From IMG/VR virus record IMGVR_UViG_3300037518_000322, positions 1 through 64,000 of that record: a stretch of DNA of 64,000 nt; one strand, written 5' to 3'. Every line of letters begins with the position of its first letter. The stretch's first letter is position 1. The notes under the pieces were generated by a model. The model saw nothing but the letters and a program-made list of their open reading frames with translations, was not told the origin of the DNA and ran no database searches. This document shows positions 6,324 to 36,360 of the stretch, piece after piece. The DNA is from a virus. A program made the position numbers and the translations under genes.

Positions 6324-6599
6324 TCAGTTGTCGTCGTCGTCGATGGTGGCGAACTCGTAGGCCAGACGCGCCACCTGCTCATGCGTCTTGGGGGTGCCCG
6401 TGTTCAAAATGGCGTTGTCCAGCACGTACACGGGGCCGTTCATCACGGACACCGTCCACGTGCCCGTGTACTCCTTGCCGAGGGTGCCGCCGCCGTCCTT
6501 GTCGACGGCGACCAGCCATCCGTGAATGGTGGTGCAGTACTCGGGCATGTCCCCATCGGCGTCGGCGAATGCTTTGCGGTACGGGTTGGTGGTGGTCAT
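6324..6599 (-). CDS. Hypothetical protein
   Basis: 91 aa, GAGG RBS. Confidence 0.65.
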   Translation of the reverse strand: MTTTNPYRKAFADADGDMPEYCTTIHGWLVAVDKDGGGTLGKEYTGTWTVSVMNGPVYVLDNAILNTGTPKTHEQVARLAYEFATIDDDDN

Positions 6600-8887: not shown

Positions 8888-8994
8888 GTCAGATTCCTCC
8901 GGGACTGGTTGGTAAAGGGTTGGTAAAGCGGCCAAGGGGCAGGGGGCCAGTCTTGCAGCGGCCAGGCATGCGCGTCAGGCGGTCCGTCAGGGCC

Positions 8995-9312
8995 AGTGTT
9001 CCGACCCCCCACCCTGAGTGTTCCGACCCCGTTCCGACCCCCTCGGAACGGTATCTGTGCAGGTCAGGGGGCCTGTGTTCCGGGTGTTCCGGGTGTTCCG
9101 AGTGAAACGAACAACTATTACGTGAGGAGGGGGTGTCTTTACCTACGCATGACGCTTTACCAACGCATTACACATGCGCGCACGTATATAGAAGGTTCCG
9201 AAAACCCCGGAACACCCAGGTACCCCGGAACACGCATGGTCTGACCTGCACAAACGCCGTTCCGACCCCCCGGAACACCCCCCGGAACACCCCGGAACAC
9301 CCCCCAGAACAA
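8995..9312. repeat. Putative replication origin: GTTCCG/CGGAAC iterons in an inverted arrangement around an AT-richer core
   Basis: Many GTTCCG copies on the left and CGGAACAC copies on the right; GTGCAGGTCAG / CTGACCTGCAC inverted pair; core contains TATATA. Confidence 0.6.
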
Positions 9313-9375
9313 GGGGTGCGGCGTCAACCCGGGTTGTCGTACGGTGCCCACCGGACAACGGCGAGGGGCAGGGGT

Positions 9376-9954
9376 ATGACGGATACGGGCACGGTGACCC
9401 GGGATGACATCAAGAAACTGTGCTGGCACCTGTCCGGCTGGACAGTCGAGCAACGGGACGTCGACGCTCTGCTGAACGCCATCGACGGTTACAGCGGGGG
9501 GTGCGGTGCGTCATGCGCTTCGCGCCCTGGCCTGCCCGGGGGTACGGGGGAGGCTGTACCCGCCCTCACGGCGCCCGCAGAGACCACGGCGGGGGAAGTG
9601 GACCCCCAGCACGCGTACGCGCCCGAGACGGCCGCACAACCGTTTAGGTTCGATGGAACGATCACCGTGCGGCTGGTCTGCGACGCGCATGAGCCGCTGT
9701 CCACACAAACGGCGACGGAACCCGATGCCGGACCGGTCACAGAACACGAACCCGTGGCGCACGCCGCGCCCGTAGTCCCGGACACCACACGCGTATGCCA
9801 CAAGAGGCACTGTGAGGTGGGCACCGCACCGCAGCCGATCACGGAGTTCGCGCGGAACGCCAAGGGTGGCGAGGAACGCAAGTACGTGTGCCGCACGTGC
9901 GAGAACAAACGCAAGCGTGAGTGGCGCACACAACGGCGCAAGCGGGCAGCCTGA
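9376..9954 (+). CDS. Hypothetical protein with C-terminal zinc finger
   Basis: MTDTGTVTRD...CHKRHC...F.RN...CRTC followed by a basic tail. Confidence 0.65.
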   Translation: MTDTGTVTRDDIKKLCWHLSGWTVEQRDVDALLNAIDGYSGGCGASCASRPGLPGGTGEAVPALTAPAETTAGEVDPQHAYAPETAAQPFRFDGTITVRLVCDAHEPLSTQTATEPDAGPVTEHEPVAHAAPVVPDTTRVCHKRHCEVGTAPQPITEFARNAKGGEERKYVCRTCENKRKREWRTQRRKRAA

Positions 9955-9955
9955 C

Positions 9956-10288
9956 ATGGCGATCATCCGGCGTTACGGCCTGTACCCGGCATTTTTCGTG
10001 CCCGATGAGGGGGAACGCGTACTGGCCTCCCGCTCACCGGCCGGACCGTTCTGCGAGGCGTACGTGACCCTCGTACGGCGCGCGTCACGCGACACGGTCC
10101 GCATCGATTTCGTGTGGCAGGAAACGGATCCCGTCTCCCCCTACGGCACGGGAGTGCACGAGGGGGAGAAAGGACACGTGTACGTGAGCACGGGGGACAC
10201 CGTGCCGCTCATCAGGCGCATCCCTTACGGATACCGCAGACGGCAGAACACGGACCCCCCGCCCGACGCACGGGCAAAGGATCCGTGA
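9956..10288 (+). CDS. Hypothetical protein
   Basis: MAIIRRYGLY... directly after the upstream stop. Confidence 0.6.
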   Translation: MAIIRRYGLYPAFFVPDEGERVLASRSPAGPFCEAYVTLVRRASRDTVRIDFVWQETDPVSPYGTGVHEGEKGHVYVSTGDTVPLIRRIPYGYRRRQNTDPPPDARAKDP

Positions 10289-10294
10289 CACACG

Positions 10295-10738
10295 TCAGCG
10301 CTTCAGCGCCGGATCCAGCGCCGTACCCGCGATCCGGCACGGACGTGACGTGACCCGAAGGCGCAGACCACGCGGACCGACCGACACACGGTCGAGCCGG
10401 ATCGTCCGCACCGCAATGCCCTCACGTCCCGACTGGTCGAGAACGGTCACTATGACGTAGGGCATGCCGTCCAGGCTCCATCCCATTTCGATGGGTTCGA
10501 CCATGCGCCGTACGGGCTTGGACGTGAGCATGGGCCGCTTGCCGAACAGCGCCATGGCGAACCGCTCGCCGGTGAAACGGCGCGGGTTGCCCCGCTTGTC
10601 TTTGGCCTCTTTGAAGAACCAGACCTCAACGGTGCGGCGCGTCTCGATGGCCGTTTCCATGATCTCGAACGCTTCGAGCGTCTCGATCTGGTTCGGCAAC
10701 CGGTGAACGGGCCGCTCCTGTGGCGTGAGTGCGCGCAT
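10295..10738 (-). CDS. WYL-like domain protein
   Basis: AIETRRTVEV...R.VEP...RTIRLDRV pattern typical of WYL domains; AAGGAGAGG RBS. Confidence 0.55.
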   Translation of the reverse strand: MRALTPQERPVHRLPNQIETLEAFEIMETAIETRRTVEVWFFKEAKDKRGNPRRFTGERFAMALFGKRPMLTSKPVRRMVEPIEMGWSLDGMPYVIVTVLDQSGREGIAVRTIRLDRVSVGPRGLRLRVTSRPCRIAGTALDPALKR

Positions 10739-10741
10739 GGT

Positions 10742-10873
10742 TCACCTCTCCTTACGCAAGTTGAGGTACACGCGCCACGGTCCGAGACCTGATGCGCGGG
10801 CCCATGCGACGGCTTCGGCCCTGGTGGCGAAGCGCATGCGTCCGCACGGCCAATGTGTGGCAATGGCGAACAT
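10742..10873 (-). CDS. Small hypothetical protein, 43 aa
   Basis: MFAIATHW...FATRAEAVAWAR; GACAAGAAAGGCGG RBS. Confidence 0.5.
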   Translation of the reverse strand: MFAIATHWPCGRMRFATRAEAVAWARASGLGPWRVYLNLRKER

Positions 10874-11034
10874 ATGCCGCCTTTCTTGTCGGTGAACGTG
10901 TGATCCGGCGTGATGTGAGGTGACGTCACGGTGCATGACATATGACGTCACCTCATCGCCGCCCGAACGAACGTTCGGTTGTACGTGCCGAAAGTGATCA
11001 AACCTCAACTTAGGTCGAGGTTCAGACCGCCCGG

Positions 11035-11112
11035 TTACAGGTGGCCGGACGGGGTGAACAGTGCGATGAGTCCGGCGGTGATGCCGTCGAATGCGGCCAG
11101 GATGCGGTTCAT
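11035..11112 (-). CDS. Putative 25-aa peptide
   Basis: MNRILAAFDGITAGLIALFTPSGHL; same GACAAGAAAGGCGG RBS as the 10873 gene. Confidence 0.4.
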   Translation of the reverse strand: MNRILAAFDGITAGLIALFTPSGHL

Positions 11113-11195
11113 GTGATCCGCCTTTCTTGTCGAGTACATGTCACATGTGGTGGTGTTGCAGTCCCAGTACAGCCCAGACAGGGCGCAGTAGTGCG

Positions 11196-11399
11196 CTAGT
11201 GCCGCAAGCCCAACTCACACGTCGCGCACGGCTCCCTGCTACCCCCCAGGATCCGGACCGGGCGCAGCACCGCCCCCGGCATGATCGGCGCAGCGGCCCA
11301 TTTCGGGCAGTCACCCTCCCACTCAGTCCCGTCCGGCCACACGATGAGCCATCCCTTACGGAGTTTCACAGTTGCCTCTCCCTCACTCTGTGCGGACAA
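11196..11399 (-). CDS. Small hypothetical protein (start uncertain)
   Basis: ...KLRKGWLIVWPDG...CATC; GGAGAGG RBS before an internal GTG. Confidence 0.45.
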   Translation of the reverse strand: MSAQSEGEATVKLRKGWLIVWPDGTEWEGDCPKWAAAPIMPGAVLRPVRILGGSREPCATCELGLRH

Positions 11400-11449
11400 G
11401 AGGCCGTCACGTTCCCTGGGGAACGTGACGCCTCTTCAGCCGGACAGCG

Positions 11450-11722
11450 TCAGATTTCGATGCCGTATTCCACCTGCCCCCGTCCGTTACGACGGCAGAC
11501 GGCTGATTCGTGGCATGTCTGTCCGGCGTAGCGGAACTCCCCCAGGGTGAACCACACGCCCCCTTGACGTGAGAGCAGCACCACGGCATGGGCGTGCTCC
11601 CGCAGCGGGGCAGGCACATCGAACATGTGAACCCGCTTGACGTACCTGTCCGCTACCACAAGGGGCATGGTGTCGGGGTGGGCCATGCCTTCAAAGGTGC
11701 GGCCGCTACGTACGATCATGAT
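11450..11722 (-). CDS. Hypothetical protein (start approximate)
   Basis: MIVRSGRTFEGM...; GAGGAG RBS. Confidence 0.5.
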   Translation of the reverse strand: MMIVRSGRTFEGMAHPDTMPLVVADRYVKRVHMFDVPAPLREHAHAVVLLSRQGGVWFTLGEFRYAGQTCHESAVCRRNGRGQVEYGIEI

Positions 11723-11819
11723 CGTCTCCTCATCTCCGGTTGGCTTCCCGCAACGCACGGGGACCACACGCCCCTCTTTGGGGGTTGTGGTCCCCGTGCG
11801 CTCCGAGTGCTCACCGGCA

Positions 11820-13064
11820 CTATCCGCGCACTGCTGTCAGCTCTTCGCGAAGCTGCGCATTCTCCTCATGGAGCCGCGCATTCTCGATGGCAAGTTCGCG
11901 TGCCTTACGGCGCCGTGTTGCGTTCCGGCGTTGTGTCCGTGTCAACGGTGTCCGGTTGTCCGGCGTCACCGGACACTCGACCGCCATAGGGTCCGGGCGC
12001 ACCGTTCCTTCGGCGGTGTCGAACATCGTTCCGGCACTGGCCTTGAAACCTGTCCGTGTGTCCACGGCAGCATCGTCCGAGGGACGTTCCGGCAGGGGGT
12101 CTCCCGCCTGCCGTACCGTCACCGGACCGGCCATCGGTTCCAGCGGGTGACCCTGCACCAGGGCGGAACCATCACTGCGCCCGTGACCCCTGCCCCCTAC
12201 AGCGGCACCGGCCTTACCCGCGACCAGCCGTGACCCCTGCCCCCCTACGGTGTCCAGCGGCTTCACGGTGTCGTCCGGGGGGACCACGGTGAGCGCACGT
12301 GTCACGTTGTCGTAGGTGACTGTCTGCGCGTCCATCAACGCTTCCAGGCGGCGTGTCAGCGTGGACACGTGCTCACTCTGCGCCTTACGTCCCGCGTCCG
12401 AACGCGGCTTACGTGTGCGCCGGTATTCCAGTGCGGCACGGATGTTGTCTTCCGTCGCTTCGGCTTCTTCGAGGCGTGTCCGTCCCTTGGGGCCCATCAC
12501 GGGAACCTCGACGGTGCCCCGCCCGAACGCCCCGTCAATCTCCGTAAGCCGTAGCTTGTGGGACGTCTCTGGGGCACCGACACGTGTACCGGTGTCCGTC
12601 ACGTCCATACGTGGCTCACTGAGAGCCTTCGACGCCGGTACGGGCTCCGAGTGCACGGTGTGCGATCTGATGGCGCCCTTGACGTCAGACAGCGGCACGT
12701 GAGCACCGCACAACGGGCACGTACCCGAACGCCGCACCTTCGGCGCCGGAGCATCGTCCGAGGATGCCGCACCCTTGACGCTCTTCTTACGCCCCACCTT
12801 CACGTCACCCATCGGGCCAATGGACATGACCTGTTCGGAACCGGGGACCGGCATGACCAGGCAGTCACCGACCGCCGTCACCGGTTCACCCGTGGTGGGG
12901 TTCACGCACTTGCCCGTCATGCGCTCACCAGCGAACACGTACCGCTTACCGTCCGCCTTGACGATCTTCCCGTCGTCCATCAGCCGGTTACGCGCCCCGT
13001 GCTGCTTCGACACGAACACGCGGACCAGTGCCGCATACTTCGCATCGGACAGTTTTCTGCTCAT
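11820..13064 (-). CDS. Hypothetical basic protein with CxxC...H zinc motif, 414 aa
   Basis: CPLCG...IRSH motif, C-terminal coiled coil; GGAAGG RBS. Confidence 0.7.
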   Translation of the reverse strand: MSRKLSDAKYAALVRVFVSKQHGARNRLMDDGKIVKADGKRYVFAGERMTGKCVNPTTGEPVTAVGDCLVMPVPGSEQVMSIGPMGDVKVGRKKSVKGAASSDDAPAPKVRRSGTCPLCGAHVPLSDVKGAIRSHTVHSEPVPASKALSEPRMDVTDTGTRVGAPETSHKLRLTEIDGAFGRGTVEVPVMGPKGRTRLEEAEATEDNIRAALEYRRTRKPRSDAGRKAQSEHVSTLTRRLEALMDAQTVTYDNVTRALTVVPPDDTVKPLDTVGGQGSRLVAGKAGAAVGGRGHGRSDGSALVQGHPLEPMAGPVTVRQAGDPLPERPSDDAAVDTRTGFKASAGTMFDTAEGTVRPDPMAVECPVTPDNRTPLTRTQRRNATRRRKARELAIENARLHEENAQLREELTAVRG

Positions 13065-13069
13065 GGTCG

Positions 13070-13925
13070 GATTCCTTCCCTCTCACCCAAAAGCCGGTTT
13101 ACACACAGTGATTGCCGGTTTACTCTCAGTAGTTGCTTCGGAGGGAAACGGGCGCGAAGGTGACCAGACCACACGAGGCGGTCACCTCTCGCACGCCCGT
13201 AACCCTTGGGTTGAAACGGCCCGTTCGGTCATCCGGCCAAGGATTCCGACACAGACCCTTGCCCCCCGGCGCGCATGCTAGACGCACCACAGGGACGAAA
13301 TGTTGGCGTAGAAAAGCCACTGGCGAACTCTCACTCGCGGGACCGCCGCTCACCCCATTACGGGCACTCCCCCATCAGGGGGGCTGAGAGACATCGACAC
13401 AAGGGGAACACCCCGGGTCACGCAACCGGCAGGCACTCGCACACACCACGGATGGCGTGCGGGCATGCACCGCATAGGCGCGTCAAGCATCGAAGGCCCA
13501 ACCACTCGCCCCCACAGGGGGATGGTCGCCGGATCGGCGGGCCTCACACCCCTAGGGGCATGGCTCAGGCACTTCACGTACCCCGACCACAAGGGCCGAC
13601 CGCATCTCGGTATGGCAAAAGCACACTGTGAAGGGGTCACGTCCGTCTCACGACGATGCTCACCCATTGACTGAGGAACAAGCACTACACGGGAAGGTTC
13701 GCACTCGCAGACTTCACGAGGTGAACACGCCAAACAACAGCGCTCACGCGGTCACGTGACTCTGGCCCATGGAAAAGACCGACGCGGGATGGTTGGCGCA
13801 CAACACGCGCACCGACCACGAGCCCACGAAAAACGATCTTGAGGTTCCAAGATCACCAAGGATGATCGCGAACGATCACCCATGGCGACCCTGGGAGGAC
13901 CGGAAAACCGGCCCACCCCAGGAAC
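13070..13925 (-). ncRNA. Candidate large structured ncRNA or long leader RNA
   Basis: No credible CDS; continuous hairpins and junctions plus a long-range helix (13275-13288 with 13477-13490); many mismatches read as G-U on the minus strand. Confidence 0.5.
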
Positions 13926-13932
13926 GACGCGC

Positions 13933-14469
13933 CTAGACCTCCCCGCGCAACACACGCCCCCAAATGCACGCGACCGCATACCCAGCCCCACCACGCCGCA
14001 GCCCGTTCCGCCGCCACTCCTCAACACGCGAACGCGGCTCCCACGTCACCCAACCGCCCCCGTGGTCCTCCATCCGAACCTCAGACGTCTCGTACTCGAC
14101 CGGCACGACAGGCGCCGGAGCATCCCCCACCTTCGCCAGAGACACACCCACGGGCACGACAGGAGCGGCGACGGGAAGCGGCTGGACGTCCGTGTACACC
14201 CAGACGTTCCGCGCACACGGCTCACACAGAACCTCAACTGCGCCCGGTCCCGACTCCTCCGACGCGGGGTAGTAACGCGCCGTGTGCGTGGCCGGACAGA
14301 CGTCGCCGAACCCCGCGCACTGCGAGCAGTGGGGCGCCTCGACGGACACGGCCACGGGGAGCGCGACACGGGCCAGGCCAGGCGTGGGCGCCCCCTGCGC
14401 GGGCGCGACGACACGGTGGGGCTCGGAGTTCAGGGCAGCACGGATCATCGACTCGGCGCTCATGATCAT
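13933..14469 (-). CDS. Hypothetical protein with CxxC...CxxC
   Basis: 178 aa; CSQC...CEPC; GGAGAGG RBS. Confidence 0.55.
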   Translation of the reverse strand: MIMSAESMIRAALNSEPHRVVAPAQGAPTPGLARVALPVAVSVEAPHCSQCAGFGDVCPATHTARYYPASEESGPGAVEVLCEPCARNVWVYTDVQPLPVAAPVVPVGVSLAKVGDAPAPVVPVEYETSEVRMEDHGGGWVTWEPRSRVEEWRRNGLRRGGAGYAVACIWGRVLRGEV

Positions 14470-14843
14470 CCTCTCCGGGCGCGAGTGGGCACGCGCGCGT
14501 GTCGCGCGTGCCCTCCTCGCCCCCTCTCTCTCTCGTGGTGTGCCCCCAGTCTAACGCCCCATGGCCCATTTGGGTCGAGGAGAGGTAACGGAGAGGTCAC
14601 GGAGTGATAACGGTGGAGTGCTCACGCAGCGTGAACCGGCGGTCACAGAGCGTGAACCGGCGCTCACGTGAGCGGAGCCGACATCGGGGGCAGGTCCGAC
14701 ATGGGGGAGATGTCCGATTTGCTCGATTTGCGCAGGGGCCGGACGCGCAGTGCCTCAGAAAATATATACCGCCGACAGCCCTATAACGATTTCCGACATA
14801 TAGGGCATATCGACCGCCGTCGTGCCCATGGGACACTACCTCC

Positions 14844-15104
14844 ATGGCAACCGCAGATGTCGAATCCACATTCCTCGCCCACCAGGAGCGAGCCCACCAG
14901 TCCATCAGGGACCGGACGTTCCCCGTCGTGCTGCCGGTGGAGCTGCGTGACTGGCTGGCCGCGCGACTGGACAGGGAAGAGGAGCAGGTCACACTGCGCG
15001 GTGAAGGACTGCCCGTCACGCTTGAGGCCCTGGTCGCCAGCACGGTGGAGATGCTGCTGTGGCGGTACAAGGAATGTTGCGACGACGAGGACTCGGCGCT
15101 GTGA
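14844..15104 (+). CDS. Hypothetical protein
   Basis: 86 aa ORF overlapping the next start (GTGA). Confidence 0.55.
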   Translation: MATADVESTFLAHQERAHQSIRDRTFPVVLPVELRDWLAARLDREEEQVTLRGEGLPVTLEALVASTVEMLLWRYKECCDDEDSAL

Positions 15105-15487
15105 ACTGCCCCGAGTGCGACACCCCGCTGCTGTGGGGCGGCACGACCTGGGTCCCCCACACCGGCACCCGCCACGCTGCGCTGCGCAGGATCCTCCTGA
15201 AGGCCGCTGTGCGGCAGTTGCGGGTGGAGTACGTCTACCGCGCCAAGGGGTGGCTGCTGGCGCGGGACCGTGCGTCGGTGCTCATCGTGTGGCGGGTACG
15301 GGGCGGCCCGCGTGGGACGCACTACTACCGCTCCGAGTGCCCCGGCGATCTGTGGGACGACGATGCCATGGGCCGGGAGCGCCTGCTGGCCGCGCTGGGG
15401 CTCAGCATGCGGGACGGCTGTGAGGCGCTGGAGGGTTTCCGCCCTCATCACATGCAGGTGACGTACCGCGTCTTCGACGAGCGGTGA
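15101..15487 (+). CDS. Hypothetical protein with N-terminal CxxC
   Basis: GTG start (MNCPECDTP...) after GAGG RBS. Confidence 0.55.
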   Translation: MNCPECDTPLLWGGTTWVPHTGTRHAALRRILLKAAVRQLRVEYVYRAKGWLLARDRASVLIVWRVRGGPRGTHYYRSECPGDLWDDDAMGRERLLAALGLSMRDGCEALEGFRPHHMQVTYRVFDER

Positions 15488-16136: not shown

Positions 16137-16222
16137 GAAAACACCCCCTGGCCTTTGAATTCAGGCTAGGGGGTGCAAAACACCTTGTAATCCCAGACGT
16201 GGCTCGGCGGGCTGGTTTCACA

Positions 16223-31646: not shown

Positions 31647-31729
31647 GGTTTCAGTATCCCCCACCGGGTGTGCCTTCGTTTCGAAGACGTCGCCTCGTGG
31701 GCTTCTTTCAAATTGAAGACGGAGGGCTC

Positions 31730-33097
31730 ATGGCACGTACGTTTCTGGGCGCCGTCCTCAAGAATGCCACTCCCGTCCCCTACGTATCACGCGCTGTGGC
31801 CCGCTACAGCCGCATCCCGGCGACCACCTCCACGACGGGGATGGAAGCGCAGATGCGCACCGTCGGGCAGGTCGGCACACTCTTCGCGATCACCGACCGG
31901 ATCATCTCCTCCTACTCCCAGGTGGAGTGGAAGCTGTTCCGGGTCCCCAAGGACGGCCGCCGCCGCTACGACCACGGCACCTCCTCCACACAGGACGACC
32001 GCATCGAGGTCACCCGGCACCCGGCACTTGACCTGTGGAACAAGCCCAACCCGTTCTTCTGCGGCTCAGCCTTCCGCGAGTCGGCGCAGCAGCACGAGGA
32101 GCTCACCGGCGAGCAGTACTGGGTCCTGGTCAAGCGGGGCGGCCTGCCACTGGAAGCGTGGTTCGTACGCCCCGACCGGATGCGCCCGGTACCCCACCCC
32201 GAGAAGTACCTCGCCGGATACATCTACACCTCCCCCGACGGGGAAGAGATCCCGCTCAGAGTCGACGAGGTCATCTTCCTCCGCCGCCCCCACCCCCTGG
32301 ACCCCTACCGGGGCCTCGGCGCAGTGCAGTCGATCATGGGTGAACTCGACGCGACGTACCTCTCCACCGAGTGGAACCGCAACTTCTTCCTCAACTCCGC
32401 CACACCCGGCGGAATCATCGAGGCCGAGCAGAACATCTCGGATGAGGACTTCGACCAGTTCCAGGCACGCTGGGCGGAAACCCACCGAGGCGTCGCCAAC
32501 GCACACCGCGTCGCCATCCTCGAAGCCGGAATGAAGTGGGTCGACCGCCGCTACACCATGGACGAGATGCAGTTCGTGGAGATGAAGCAGGCATCCCGCG
32601 AAGTCATCCGTGAAGCGTTCGGCTTCCCCAAGGCGATGCTCGGCGCCACCGACGACGTCAACAAGGCCAACGCCTACGCAGGCGAGGTCATGTTCGCCCG
32701 GTGGATCACCCGGCCCCGCCTCATGCGCGTCAAGGAAGTCCTCAACACCGTCCTGCTCCCCATGTACGGAGCATCAGCCGCCGGACTCGAATTCGACTTC
32801 GTCAACCCCGTCCCCGAGGACGACGAGATCGCCGCCCAGGTGCTCCTCAACAGGGCACAGGCAGTCAAGTTCCTCGCCGACACCGGCCTGTGGGAGCCCG
32901 CCAGCATGCTCTCCGCCTGCGGCATGCCCGCCATGACCGAGCTGCCCGAGCCCCGCCAGATGGCAGCCATCACCGCACCGCCCAGACAGCAGGACGCCGA
33001 CGAGCCAGCGCCACGCAAGGAAGACGACGAGCCGGTGAAGAAGGTACCCGCGCCCGCCGAGAGCCCGGACGACTGGCTGCAAAGGATGCTCCTGTGA
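31730..33097 (+). CDS. Portal protein (HK97-like)
   Basis: HPALDLWNKPNP, LTGEQYW, YRGLGAV, FFLNSATPGG, AFGFPKAMLG; GGAGG RBS. Confidence 0.92.
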   Translation: MARTFLGAVLKNATPVPYVSRAVARYSRIPATTSTTGMEAQMRTVGQVGTLFAITDRIISSYSQVEWKLFRVPKDGRRRYDHGTSSTQDDRIEVTRHPALDLWNKPNPFFCGSAFRESAQQHEELTGEQYWVLVKRGGLPLEAWFVRPDRMRPVPHPEKYLAGYIYTSPDGEEIPLRVDEVIFLRRPHPLDPYRGLGAVQSIMGELDATYLSTEWNRNFFLNSATPGGIIEAEQNISDEDFDQFQARWAETHRGVANAHRVAILEAGMKWVDRRYTMDEMQFVEMKQASREVIREAFGFPKAMLGATDDVNKANAYAGEVMFARWITRPRLMRVKEVLNTVLLPMYGASAAGLEFDFVNPVPEDDEIAAQVLLNRAQAVKFLADTGLWEPASMLSACGMPAMTELPEPRQMAAITAPPRQQDADEPAPRKEDDEPVKKVPAPAESPDDWLQRMLL

Positions 33098-36274: not shown

Positions 36275-36324
36275 TAGCTGAGTGTAGTCGGCTCGCGATA
36301 CACCACCAACACGTTCGATAAAAC

Positions 36325-36360
36325 GAGGGCCCTGGAGACACCGTCTTCGAGGGTCTTTTT
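36325..36360 (+). terminator. Rho-independent terminator after the capsid gene
   Basis: GAGGGCCCTGGAGA...TCTTCGAGGGTCTTTTT. Confidence 0.6.

Follow-up and report, generated by a model that had tools for sequence, protein, structure and literature searches.

The subject of this study is a gap of 868 nucleotides (nt) in an uncultured phage genome, an IMG/VR virus record of 116,662 bp (IMGVR_UViG_3300037518_000322; 64% G+C, estimated completeness 92%). The opening 64 kb of this record are referred to as the window, in which the gap occupies positions 13065-13932. The gap lies between two minus-strand genes, one upstream for a protein of 178 amino acids (aa; 13933-14469) and one downstream for a protein of 414 aa (11820-13064). 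It is non-coding and conserved in position, it contains hairpins that covary between lineages, and its conserved core and the hairpin arrays are biased towards the sense strand of the downstream gene. Rather than a single giant fold, the gap appears to be a string of small hairpins, and it matches no known RNA family. We consider it about an even call that the gap is a modular leader, transcribed leftward, whose hairpins serve as protein-binding sites; its transcription, the binding partner and the outcome of binding are what we infer from sequence comparison.

A non-coding gap conserved in position

Streptomyces phage Dagobah has the closest counterpart of the phage's portal protein (31697-33097), the two being 45.6% identical across 94% of the query, and by this sequence measure we therefore take the uncultured phage to be distantly related to Streptomyces phages. 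Among its 23 gaps of at least 150 nt, the one studied here ranks second by size and is the largest without tRNAs, the top gap holding tRNAs. The signal of GC content by codon position is flat across approximately 13075-13735, with a spread of at most 0.20 versus 0.3-0.44 in the flanking genes. A codon log-odds caller, self-trained on long genes of this phage, reported no open reading frame (ORF) of at least 30 aa scoring above 3 within 13065-13932, the flanking genes scoring 55.5 and 15.8, and the two longest mechanically called ORFs in the gap (127 and 118 aa) matched no Pfam and no PHROG family. The gap is thereby confirmed as non-coding, as a preliminary description made from the bare sequence had claimed for 13070-13925. 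That small protein genes or gene remnants went unrecognised here is highly improbable. Mechanical ORFs of 43-127 aa are present on both strands, and one on the plus strand (13769-13936) is mildly coding-like in its GC by position, but beyond the lack of scoring ORFs and of family matches in the window, the corresponding gaps of six related loci hold no ORF of at least 25 aa scoring above 4, except one of 27 aa in locus L008 (5.1), and no reading frame is conserved across them.

These six loci, L002 (identical with the L005 contig), L003, L004, L006, L007 and L008, were obtained in an alignment-driven scan with the family of the 414-aa protein and represent five further lineages. An ORF-free gap precedes the family gene in all seven loci, the window included. 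It measures 868 nt in the window, about 750-800 nt in L002, 615 nt in L003, about 480-550 nt in L007 and about 630-650 nt in L008, and at least 490 and 555 nt in L004 and L006, where the contig ends inside the gap. The genes downstream are syntenic in L008, and across lineages the family proteins are just 35-64% identical. Comparison of the gap with the related loci yielded nothing in nhmmer and short blocks only in blastn; short words (GCCATGGGTGATC, GTGATCTTGGA, CACAGTGTG and TACGCCAAC) recur in the same order across loci. When folding energies were compared with those of shuffled sequence, here and below as z scores, the sense strands of the relatives' gaps gave values from -2.9 to -7.5 (five of five tested), and the sense strand was more negative than the antisense strand in five of six gaps (the window and five relatives).

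Searches outside this group returned no counterpart. Among 50,697 deposited phages there was no match to the gap DNA (blastn, distant mode), nor to both flanking proteins and the homologue P0007 (tblastn). Viral-contig scans with single proteins (the 414-aa and 178-aa proteins and a 91-aa protein encoded at 6324-6599) found no relatives, bacterial genome contigs scanned with the family alignment contained none, and a literature search at the level of listings and the opening lines of abstracts brought up nothing on actinophage regions of this kind. The statement in the preliminary description that no RNA family could be assigned also held, as no Rfam family matches the window or the six related loci: cmscan of the window at the gathering score reported five tRNAs only, 12900-14100 at E <=10 gave three chance-level matches (mir-H20, Prion_pknot and ASpks) and none to STnc100, and the related loci at E <=0.1 gave one match to a miRNA model (E 0.063).

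A covarying, strand-specific core and sense-oriented hairpin arrays

The clearest strand-specific signal comes from a conserved core at 13210-13295 and points to an RNA in the sense of the gene. On the minus strand the core folds with -42.3 kcal/mol (z -3.08), a value reached by none of 200 shuffles, versus -23.4 kcal/mol on the plus strand (z +0.72), where 153 of 200 shuffles folded as well. The core folds poorly on the plus strand because several of its pairs are G-U on the minus strand, so that for this segment the earlier reading of plus-strand A-C mismatches as minus-strand G-U pairs is borne out. Two hairpins make up the core (13217-13294, minus strand), hairpin P with the loop CUAGCAU and hairpin B with the outer stem GGGUCUG/CGGGCC and an apical insert. 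Module B combines A-rich internal loops and a small hairpin at its apex with an outer stem of 6-7 bp. It can be aligned in the window, L002, L003, L004 and L006, and four of its six outer-stem pairs covary in these five sequences. The hairpin beside module B has a stem that differs wholly among lineages and a (G/C)UAGC loop in the window, L002, L003 and L004; L007 and L008 carry UCCCG-CGUAG-CGGGA.

Further covariation was found between L003 and L004, which are 80% identical over 457 nt. Of the 127 pairs in their consensus structure, 12 differ between the two loci on both sides, and 100% of cells are paired; controls in which the partner was shifted by 1-3 columns showed 0-2 double changes and 38-43% paired. 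In the sense orientation the column-shuffle z is -9.2, and the structure has 15 and 11 G-U pairs, versus 6 and 7 in the antisense orientation. Both loci possess five copies of a GC(G/A)-A(C/U)UA-(C/U)GC hairpin, all sense-oriented, with variable outer stems and a closing pair that is either G-C or A-U. In L008, eight copies of GACAC-N3-GUGUC are all located in the gap of a 12.4-kb locus, with loops that are C/U-rich on the sense strand. Stem extensions of the array hairpins include six G-U pairs and no A-C pair. We read such hairpins as protein-binding RNA because their stems vary, their loops are conserved and they keep a single orientation.

Judged by sequence, the gap combines a location directly upstream of a conserved gene, on that gene's sense strand, with covarying, strand-specific paired elements, as a generic cis-acting mRNA leader would. 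The preliminary description had proposed either one large non-coding RNA (ncRNA) of the GOLLD/ROOL size class or an elaborate leader of the leftward operon. The second proposal fits better, given the ORF-free gap in seven of seven loci, the covarying core that folds in the window in the sense direction only, and the sense-oriented arrays of the relatives.

Two side observations concern loop types. In L007, five hairpins between approximately 400 and 780 have an apical CG-AUCA-CG, the type of the last L003 hairpin (1367). Plus-strand GC-clamp hairpins of the window show AUCA and AACA loops, that is, in antisense, and this likeness to L007 is probably a coincidence.

Evidence weighing against a leader, and rival explanations

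Several results weigh against the leader reading. Covariation was assessed on seven gap sequences that are mostly too diverged to align and that, with unequal stem lengths, failed to align in register. In the L003/L004 pair the antisense signal is nearly equal to the sense signal (z -9.1, 10 double changes), and L003 alone folds better in antisense (-9.5 versus -6.9).

This antisense signal counts in favour of a serious rival, to which we assign a real but limited probability: an array of dyad-symmetric sites acting at the level of DNA, as an iteron-type origin or a cooperative operator, and read as a duplex, possibly by the downstream protein with a specificity that drifts between lineages. 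It would account for repeats that differ by lineage and occur solely in the gap beside a conserved gene, and for the arms GACAC/GTGTC being kept in eight of eight L008 copies, as expected for base-specific reading of DNA. Consistent with it are also 21-nt repeats with the core GTRAACCGGC, described below, which occur at other non-coding sites in both orientations, a dip in GC content to 0.58 at 13600-13900, and the zinc-ribbon-like and basic segments of the 414-aa protein. However, the stems in L003 and L004 are compensatory around a conserved 4-nt centre, with one orientation in 10 of 10 copies and no asymmetric variants, the G-U bias is towards the sense strand, and the core of the window does not fold on the plus strand. 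The features of an iteron-type origin were likewise missing at the locus: the L008 repeats are irregularly spaced (24, 34, 32, 89, 50, 186 and 44 nt), there is no AT-rich unwinding stretch (0.58 being the lowest 300-nt GC value), cumulative GC skew makes no genome-scale turn, and the 414-aa protein has no match to an initiator family or fold.

The folding data also count in part against a leader. The whole gap reaches -416.5 kcal/mol on the minus strand, versus -370 +/- 8 kcal/mol for shuffled sequence (z -5.68), and z -3.95 on the plus strand, and on neither strand did any of 20 shuffles fold as well. As a whole the gap is therefore structured beyond chance, but the signal is local, with two strong ends and a centre that is near random. 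The end adjoining the upstream gene (13815-13932) folds on the minus strand with -61.2 kcal/mol (z -5.72; none of 200 shuffles as good), and 13140-13250 gives z -3.70 on the minus strand (200 shuffles) and -4.51 on the plus strand. In the centre, z is -0.45 for 13360-13420 and -2.08 for 13500-13610 (200 shuffles each), +0.28 for 13600-13700 and -0.39 for 13255-13330, and a 200-nt sliding scan of 13200-13700 stays between -0.4 and -2.2. Control gaps elsewhere in the phage range from z 0 to -4.5, and three coding stretches of 868 nt from +0.9 to -3.3. Because the signal is local, the centre is shuffle-like and other gaps reach z -4.5, the original observation of a large structured region is only partly confirmed. 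The helices first read by eye do exist in the sequence, and among them 13148-13200 and 13835-13922 were recovered in the folds; the long-range pairing 13275-13288/13477-13490 proved weak (pair probabilities 0.07 and 0.54).

A natural variant, on a contig from sediment run X3, provides a further comparison. It is approximately 91% identical to 13312-13538 and 13602-13797, whereas 13202-13311, 13539-13601 and 13798-13931 are unaligned or replaced. The 32 nt present in place of 13539-13601 form, by manual reading, a 5-bp hairpin whose CUUGU loop is that of the window hairpin 13585-13597 on a quite different stem. When 20 of the 35 substitutions were examined, 12 fell on pairs of the minus-strand minimum free energy (MFE) structure, and six of these 12 break their pair.

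Together with the relatives, this variant bears on the proposal of one globally folded ncRNA of GOLLD/ROOL/OLE size covering most of 13070-13925. The whole-gap z on the minus strand, the size and the phage context all agree with such an RNA, but no Rfam family matches even at E <=10, the relatives share local modules and no long-range architecture, the interior folds like shuffles, gap length ranges from approximately 480 to 868 nt, and the variant swaps or loses three segments and breaks half of the MFE pairs on which its substitutions fall. All comparative data disfavour a single giant RNA, and we regard it as very unlikely.

The window's own array is looser than those of its relatives. It consists of five small GC-stem hairpins on the minus strand between 13369 and 13597 (13585-13597, 13549-13558, 13509-13521, 13403-13414 and 13369-13383), with loops mostly of (C)UGU, CUUGU or UGAU type. 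The cluster accounts for four of the genome's 35 G4/C4-clamp hairpins and for four copies of GCGAGUG versus 0.08 expected, and the word CC[CU]UGUG (CCYTGTG) occurs in the gap four times in sense and never in antisense, versus 18 times across the minus strand as a whole. Local folding gives z of only -0.45 to -2.1, and the words, chosen post hoc and borderline after multiple-testing correction, are only suggestive.

A sigma-70 scan of 12500-15000 returned no sites, and the -10 element first suggested near 13681-13687 found no support there. An extracytoplasmic function (ECF)-sigma-like word, GCCAAC-N17-CGTCTA (13279-13307, minus strand), belongs to a set of four in the genome's non-coding DNA versus about one expected by a rough estimate, and the block TACGCCAAC at this word is common to the window, L002 and L006. 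It may be a promoter, but is a weak candidate because it overlaps hairpin P, is unaligned in the X3 variant and has no Sigma70_r2 gene to go with it, such a domain being encoded nowhere in the phage record. Related AAC-N15-18-CGTCT words were noted in non-coding DNA at 36318-36349 and 58734-58766 on the plus strand and 16192-16221 on the minus strand, and they fit a recurring promoter-like motif listed in the preliminary description at 16.2, 16.5, 24.8, 29.0 and 31.7 kb.

Layout of the gap

The elements below lie on the minus strand and are given in the direction of leftward transcription. Directly after the stop codon of the 178-aa gene (13933-13935), a 15-bp hairpin, H1 (13889-13923), carries an apical CCGG-UUUU-CCGG. 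It is followed by H2 (13855-13886), a hairpin CCAUGGGUGAUCG-UUCG-CGAUCAUCCUUGG whose stem also closes an insert of approximately 45 nt in L008, the words GCCATGGGTGATC and GATCATCC being common to the window and L008. The third element, H3 (13829-13855), has a hairpin of 8 bp with a 4-nt loop (13835-13854) followed by G and U5 and resembles an intrinsic terminator; a consensus scan of 12500-15000 listed no terminator, H3 included. Four GATC sites fall within 45 nt inside H2 and H3 (13835-13877). We rejected this cluster as a special feature, with 766 GATC sites observed genome-wide versus 770 expected and seven comparable clusters elsewhere.

A near-perfect hairpin of 21 bp also lies directly after the 414-aa gene, at approximately 11760-11810 (111-nt fold of -62.9 kcal/mol, z -5.76), and the gene is therefore bracketed by strong hairpins on both sides. 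Such an arrangement could belong to a transcriptional insulator or spacer, in which terminators and stable hairpins isolate the 414-aa gene and the repeats stem from local duplication, with no specific ligand. The hairpins H1-H3 with their U-run at the end of the upstream gene, the 21-bp hairpin, a gap centre that is not significantly structured and neighbouring gaps that are likewise hairpin-rich would all agree with it. We nevertheless think it unlikely, as conserved loops on varying stems are the reverse of neutral decay of duplicates, the core and short blocks keep their order across lineages whose proteins are 35-64% identical, and most of the hairpins have no U-tails.

Between H3 and the array, a conserved block, TTCACAGTGTGCTT (13619-13632), contains a CACA-G-TGTG dyad and gave a 15-nt exact match to L008; ACAGTGTG is present in the window, L003, L004, L006 and L008. 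Beyond the core, a long leader hairpin at 13148-13200 falls within the 13140-13250 fold. Two 21-nt direct repeats with the core GUAAACCGGC (13093-13134) are located between an anti-Shine-Dalgarno (anti-SD) sequence at 13141-13148 and the Shine-Dalgarno (SD) sequence at 13073-13082. These repeats may be operator-like or a candidate protein-binding site. A 41-nt match links them to L003 (E 1e-7), and GUAAACCGGC has 12 matches with at most one mismatch in the window versus 2.7 expected. Compared with its own genome by blastn-short, the gap gave chance 11-13-mers only and hence no dispersed copies.

The GT(A/G)AACCGGC repeats occur as pairs at 13093-13134 in minus sense and at 14622-14663 in plus sense, 1.5 kb apart and facing away from each other. 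Their core brackets the L002 gap and is present in L003 at 155-194, and from this distribution the repeats look like the operator of a phage regulator common to the phage group. When viral contigs were scanned for a doubled GTRAACCGGC pattern, four contained it; none of the four encodes the 414-aa family, and they were judged unrelated.

A possible leader mechanism and its relation to known systems

On the leader reading, hairpins H1-H3, the last with its U-run, would end the transcript of the 178-aa gene. The next approximately 500 nt would hold small GC-stem hairpins in a loose array, along with the recurring short words, and would lead into the conserved two-hairpin core, the long hairpin and the two 21-nt repeats between the anti-SD and SD of the 414-aa gene. 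The 414-aa gene would accordingly be made from a long structured leader, in which the hairpins with variable stems and lineage-specific loops would bind a protein. The simplest ligand, and the nearest candidate, would be the very protein that the downstream gene encodes, with its zinc-ribbon-like Cys/His motifs and arginine-rich stretches. Binding could then set read-through, translation of the 414-aa gene, or both. A bolder version, which we offer tentatively and regard as doubtful on balance, is that the gap represents an undescribed class of phage regulatory RNA: a long leader with a core and an array of 4-8 hairpins, whose lineage-specific loops co-evolve with the downstream protein, and in which this protein, coating the leader of its own gene in an N/boxB- or sponge-like manner, would time read-through or translation.

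One near parallel is the pL leader of phage lambda, in which nutL precedes gene N and N-boxB recognition serves both antitermination and autoregulation of N. There, as here, a structured leader stands before a gene whose protein has an arginine-rich segment; on the proposed reading of the gap, small hairpins would likewise be read by their loop and not by their stem, and a terminator upstream or downstream would have to be passed. Lambda has one boxB per nut site, whereas the gaps hold 4-8 hairpins with other loops: the GNRA-like loop of boxB stands against UGU-type loops in the window, A(C/U)UA in L003 and L004, and C/U-rich loops in L008. Also, N is a disordered protein of about 100 aa, unlike the 414-aa protein with its zinc-ribbon-like part, and no boxA-like element was noted in the gap, no search aimed at it having been made.

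Protein-sponge RNAs such as CsrB and RsmZ carry many hairpins with one conserved loop motif. The arrays described here are similar in their variable stems, repeated loop motif and single orientation, but their loop motifs are different ones and change between phage lineages, and the array precedes a gene and does not end at a terminator of its own; to our knowledge, actinobacteria lack CsrA. With GOLLD and ROOL the gap has in common the 600-900 nt class, the phage context and the absence of coding potential, and it differs from them in having no Rfam match, no conserved global fold, a variable length and a modular make-up. Iteron-type origins, such as lambda ori and those of iteron plasmids, adjoin their initiator gene. 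Lineage-specific short repeats, often dyad-symmetric, beside the gene of a nucleic-acid-binding protein are common to both, in contrast to the irregular spacing, the compensatory stems with conserved centres, the G-U bias to the sense strand and the lack of an AT-rich region seen here.

The regulatory RNA of actinobacteriophages has hardly been explored, and as far as we know their hosts are without the usual RNA chaperones Hfq and CsrA. A positionally conserved non-coding region with covarying hairpins and lineage-specific loops offers a concrete, testable RNA-protein pair, and a first handle on an unannotated protein family with 92 representatives. If the bolder version of the leader reading is true, uncultured phages of the Streptomyces type would possess an RNA-protein switch that is complete in itself. 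With the evidence limited to seven sequences, we regard the gap as a moderately interesting lead.

Flanking genes and surroundings

The 414-aa protein (11820-13064, minus strand) belongs to an uncharacterised family and features zinc-ribbon-like Cys/His motifs, arginine-rich stretches and a long C-terminal helix. It has 14 homologues in a clustered protein collection, the nearest being P0001 (99%) and P0002 (54% identity), and a profile search of the full library placed 92 representatives in the family at E <=0.001. No significant Pfam or PHROG family was found for it, and its AlphaFold2 (AF2) model, with a mean predicted local distance difference test (pLDDT) score of 63, has no fold match in the PDB at E <=0.001, so that structure and family give no functional clue. 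In the C-terminus (11820-11960), the last approximately 40 residues comprise an arginine-rich stretch followed by a helix (376-413, pLDDT about 90). By eye this tail resembles a basic region with a coiled coil, and it is present in some family members only.

The 178-aa gene (13933-14469, minus strand) encodes a protein of no family and is the first gene to the left of non-coding 14470-14843. That interval has no coding signal. Beyond it, two plus-strand ORFs (14844-15104 and 15101-15487) have gene-like scores, unlike a longer minus-strand ORF (14597-15451). The 178-aa gene therefore seems to be the first of a leftward unit that begins at a divergent control region.

The gap belongs to a 6.5-kb stretch (8888-15401) with unusually few genes, in which the gaps measure 488, 335, 310, 868, 374 and 297 nt. 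Five of these gaps, all but the one of 297 nt, were folded; four gave z -3 to -4.5, slightly stronger on the minus strand, and the fifth (11140-11449) gave z -1.5. From approximately 12000 to 14500 the plus strand is C- and A-rich, with GC skew down to -0.31 and AT skew up to +0.45; the remaining leftward gene blocks (1-9 kb and 16-24 kb) are skewed the opposite way.

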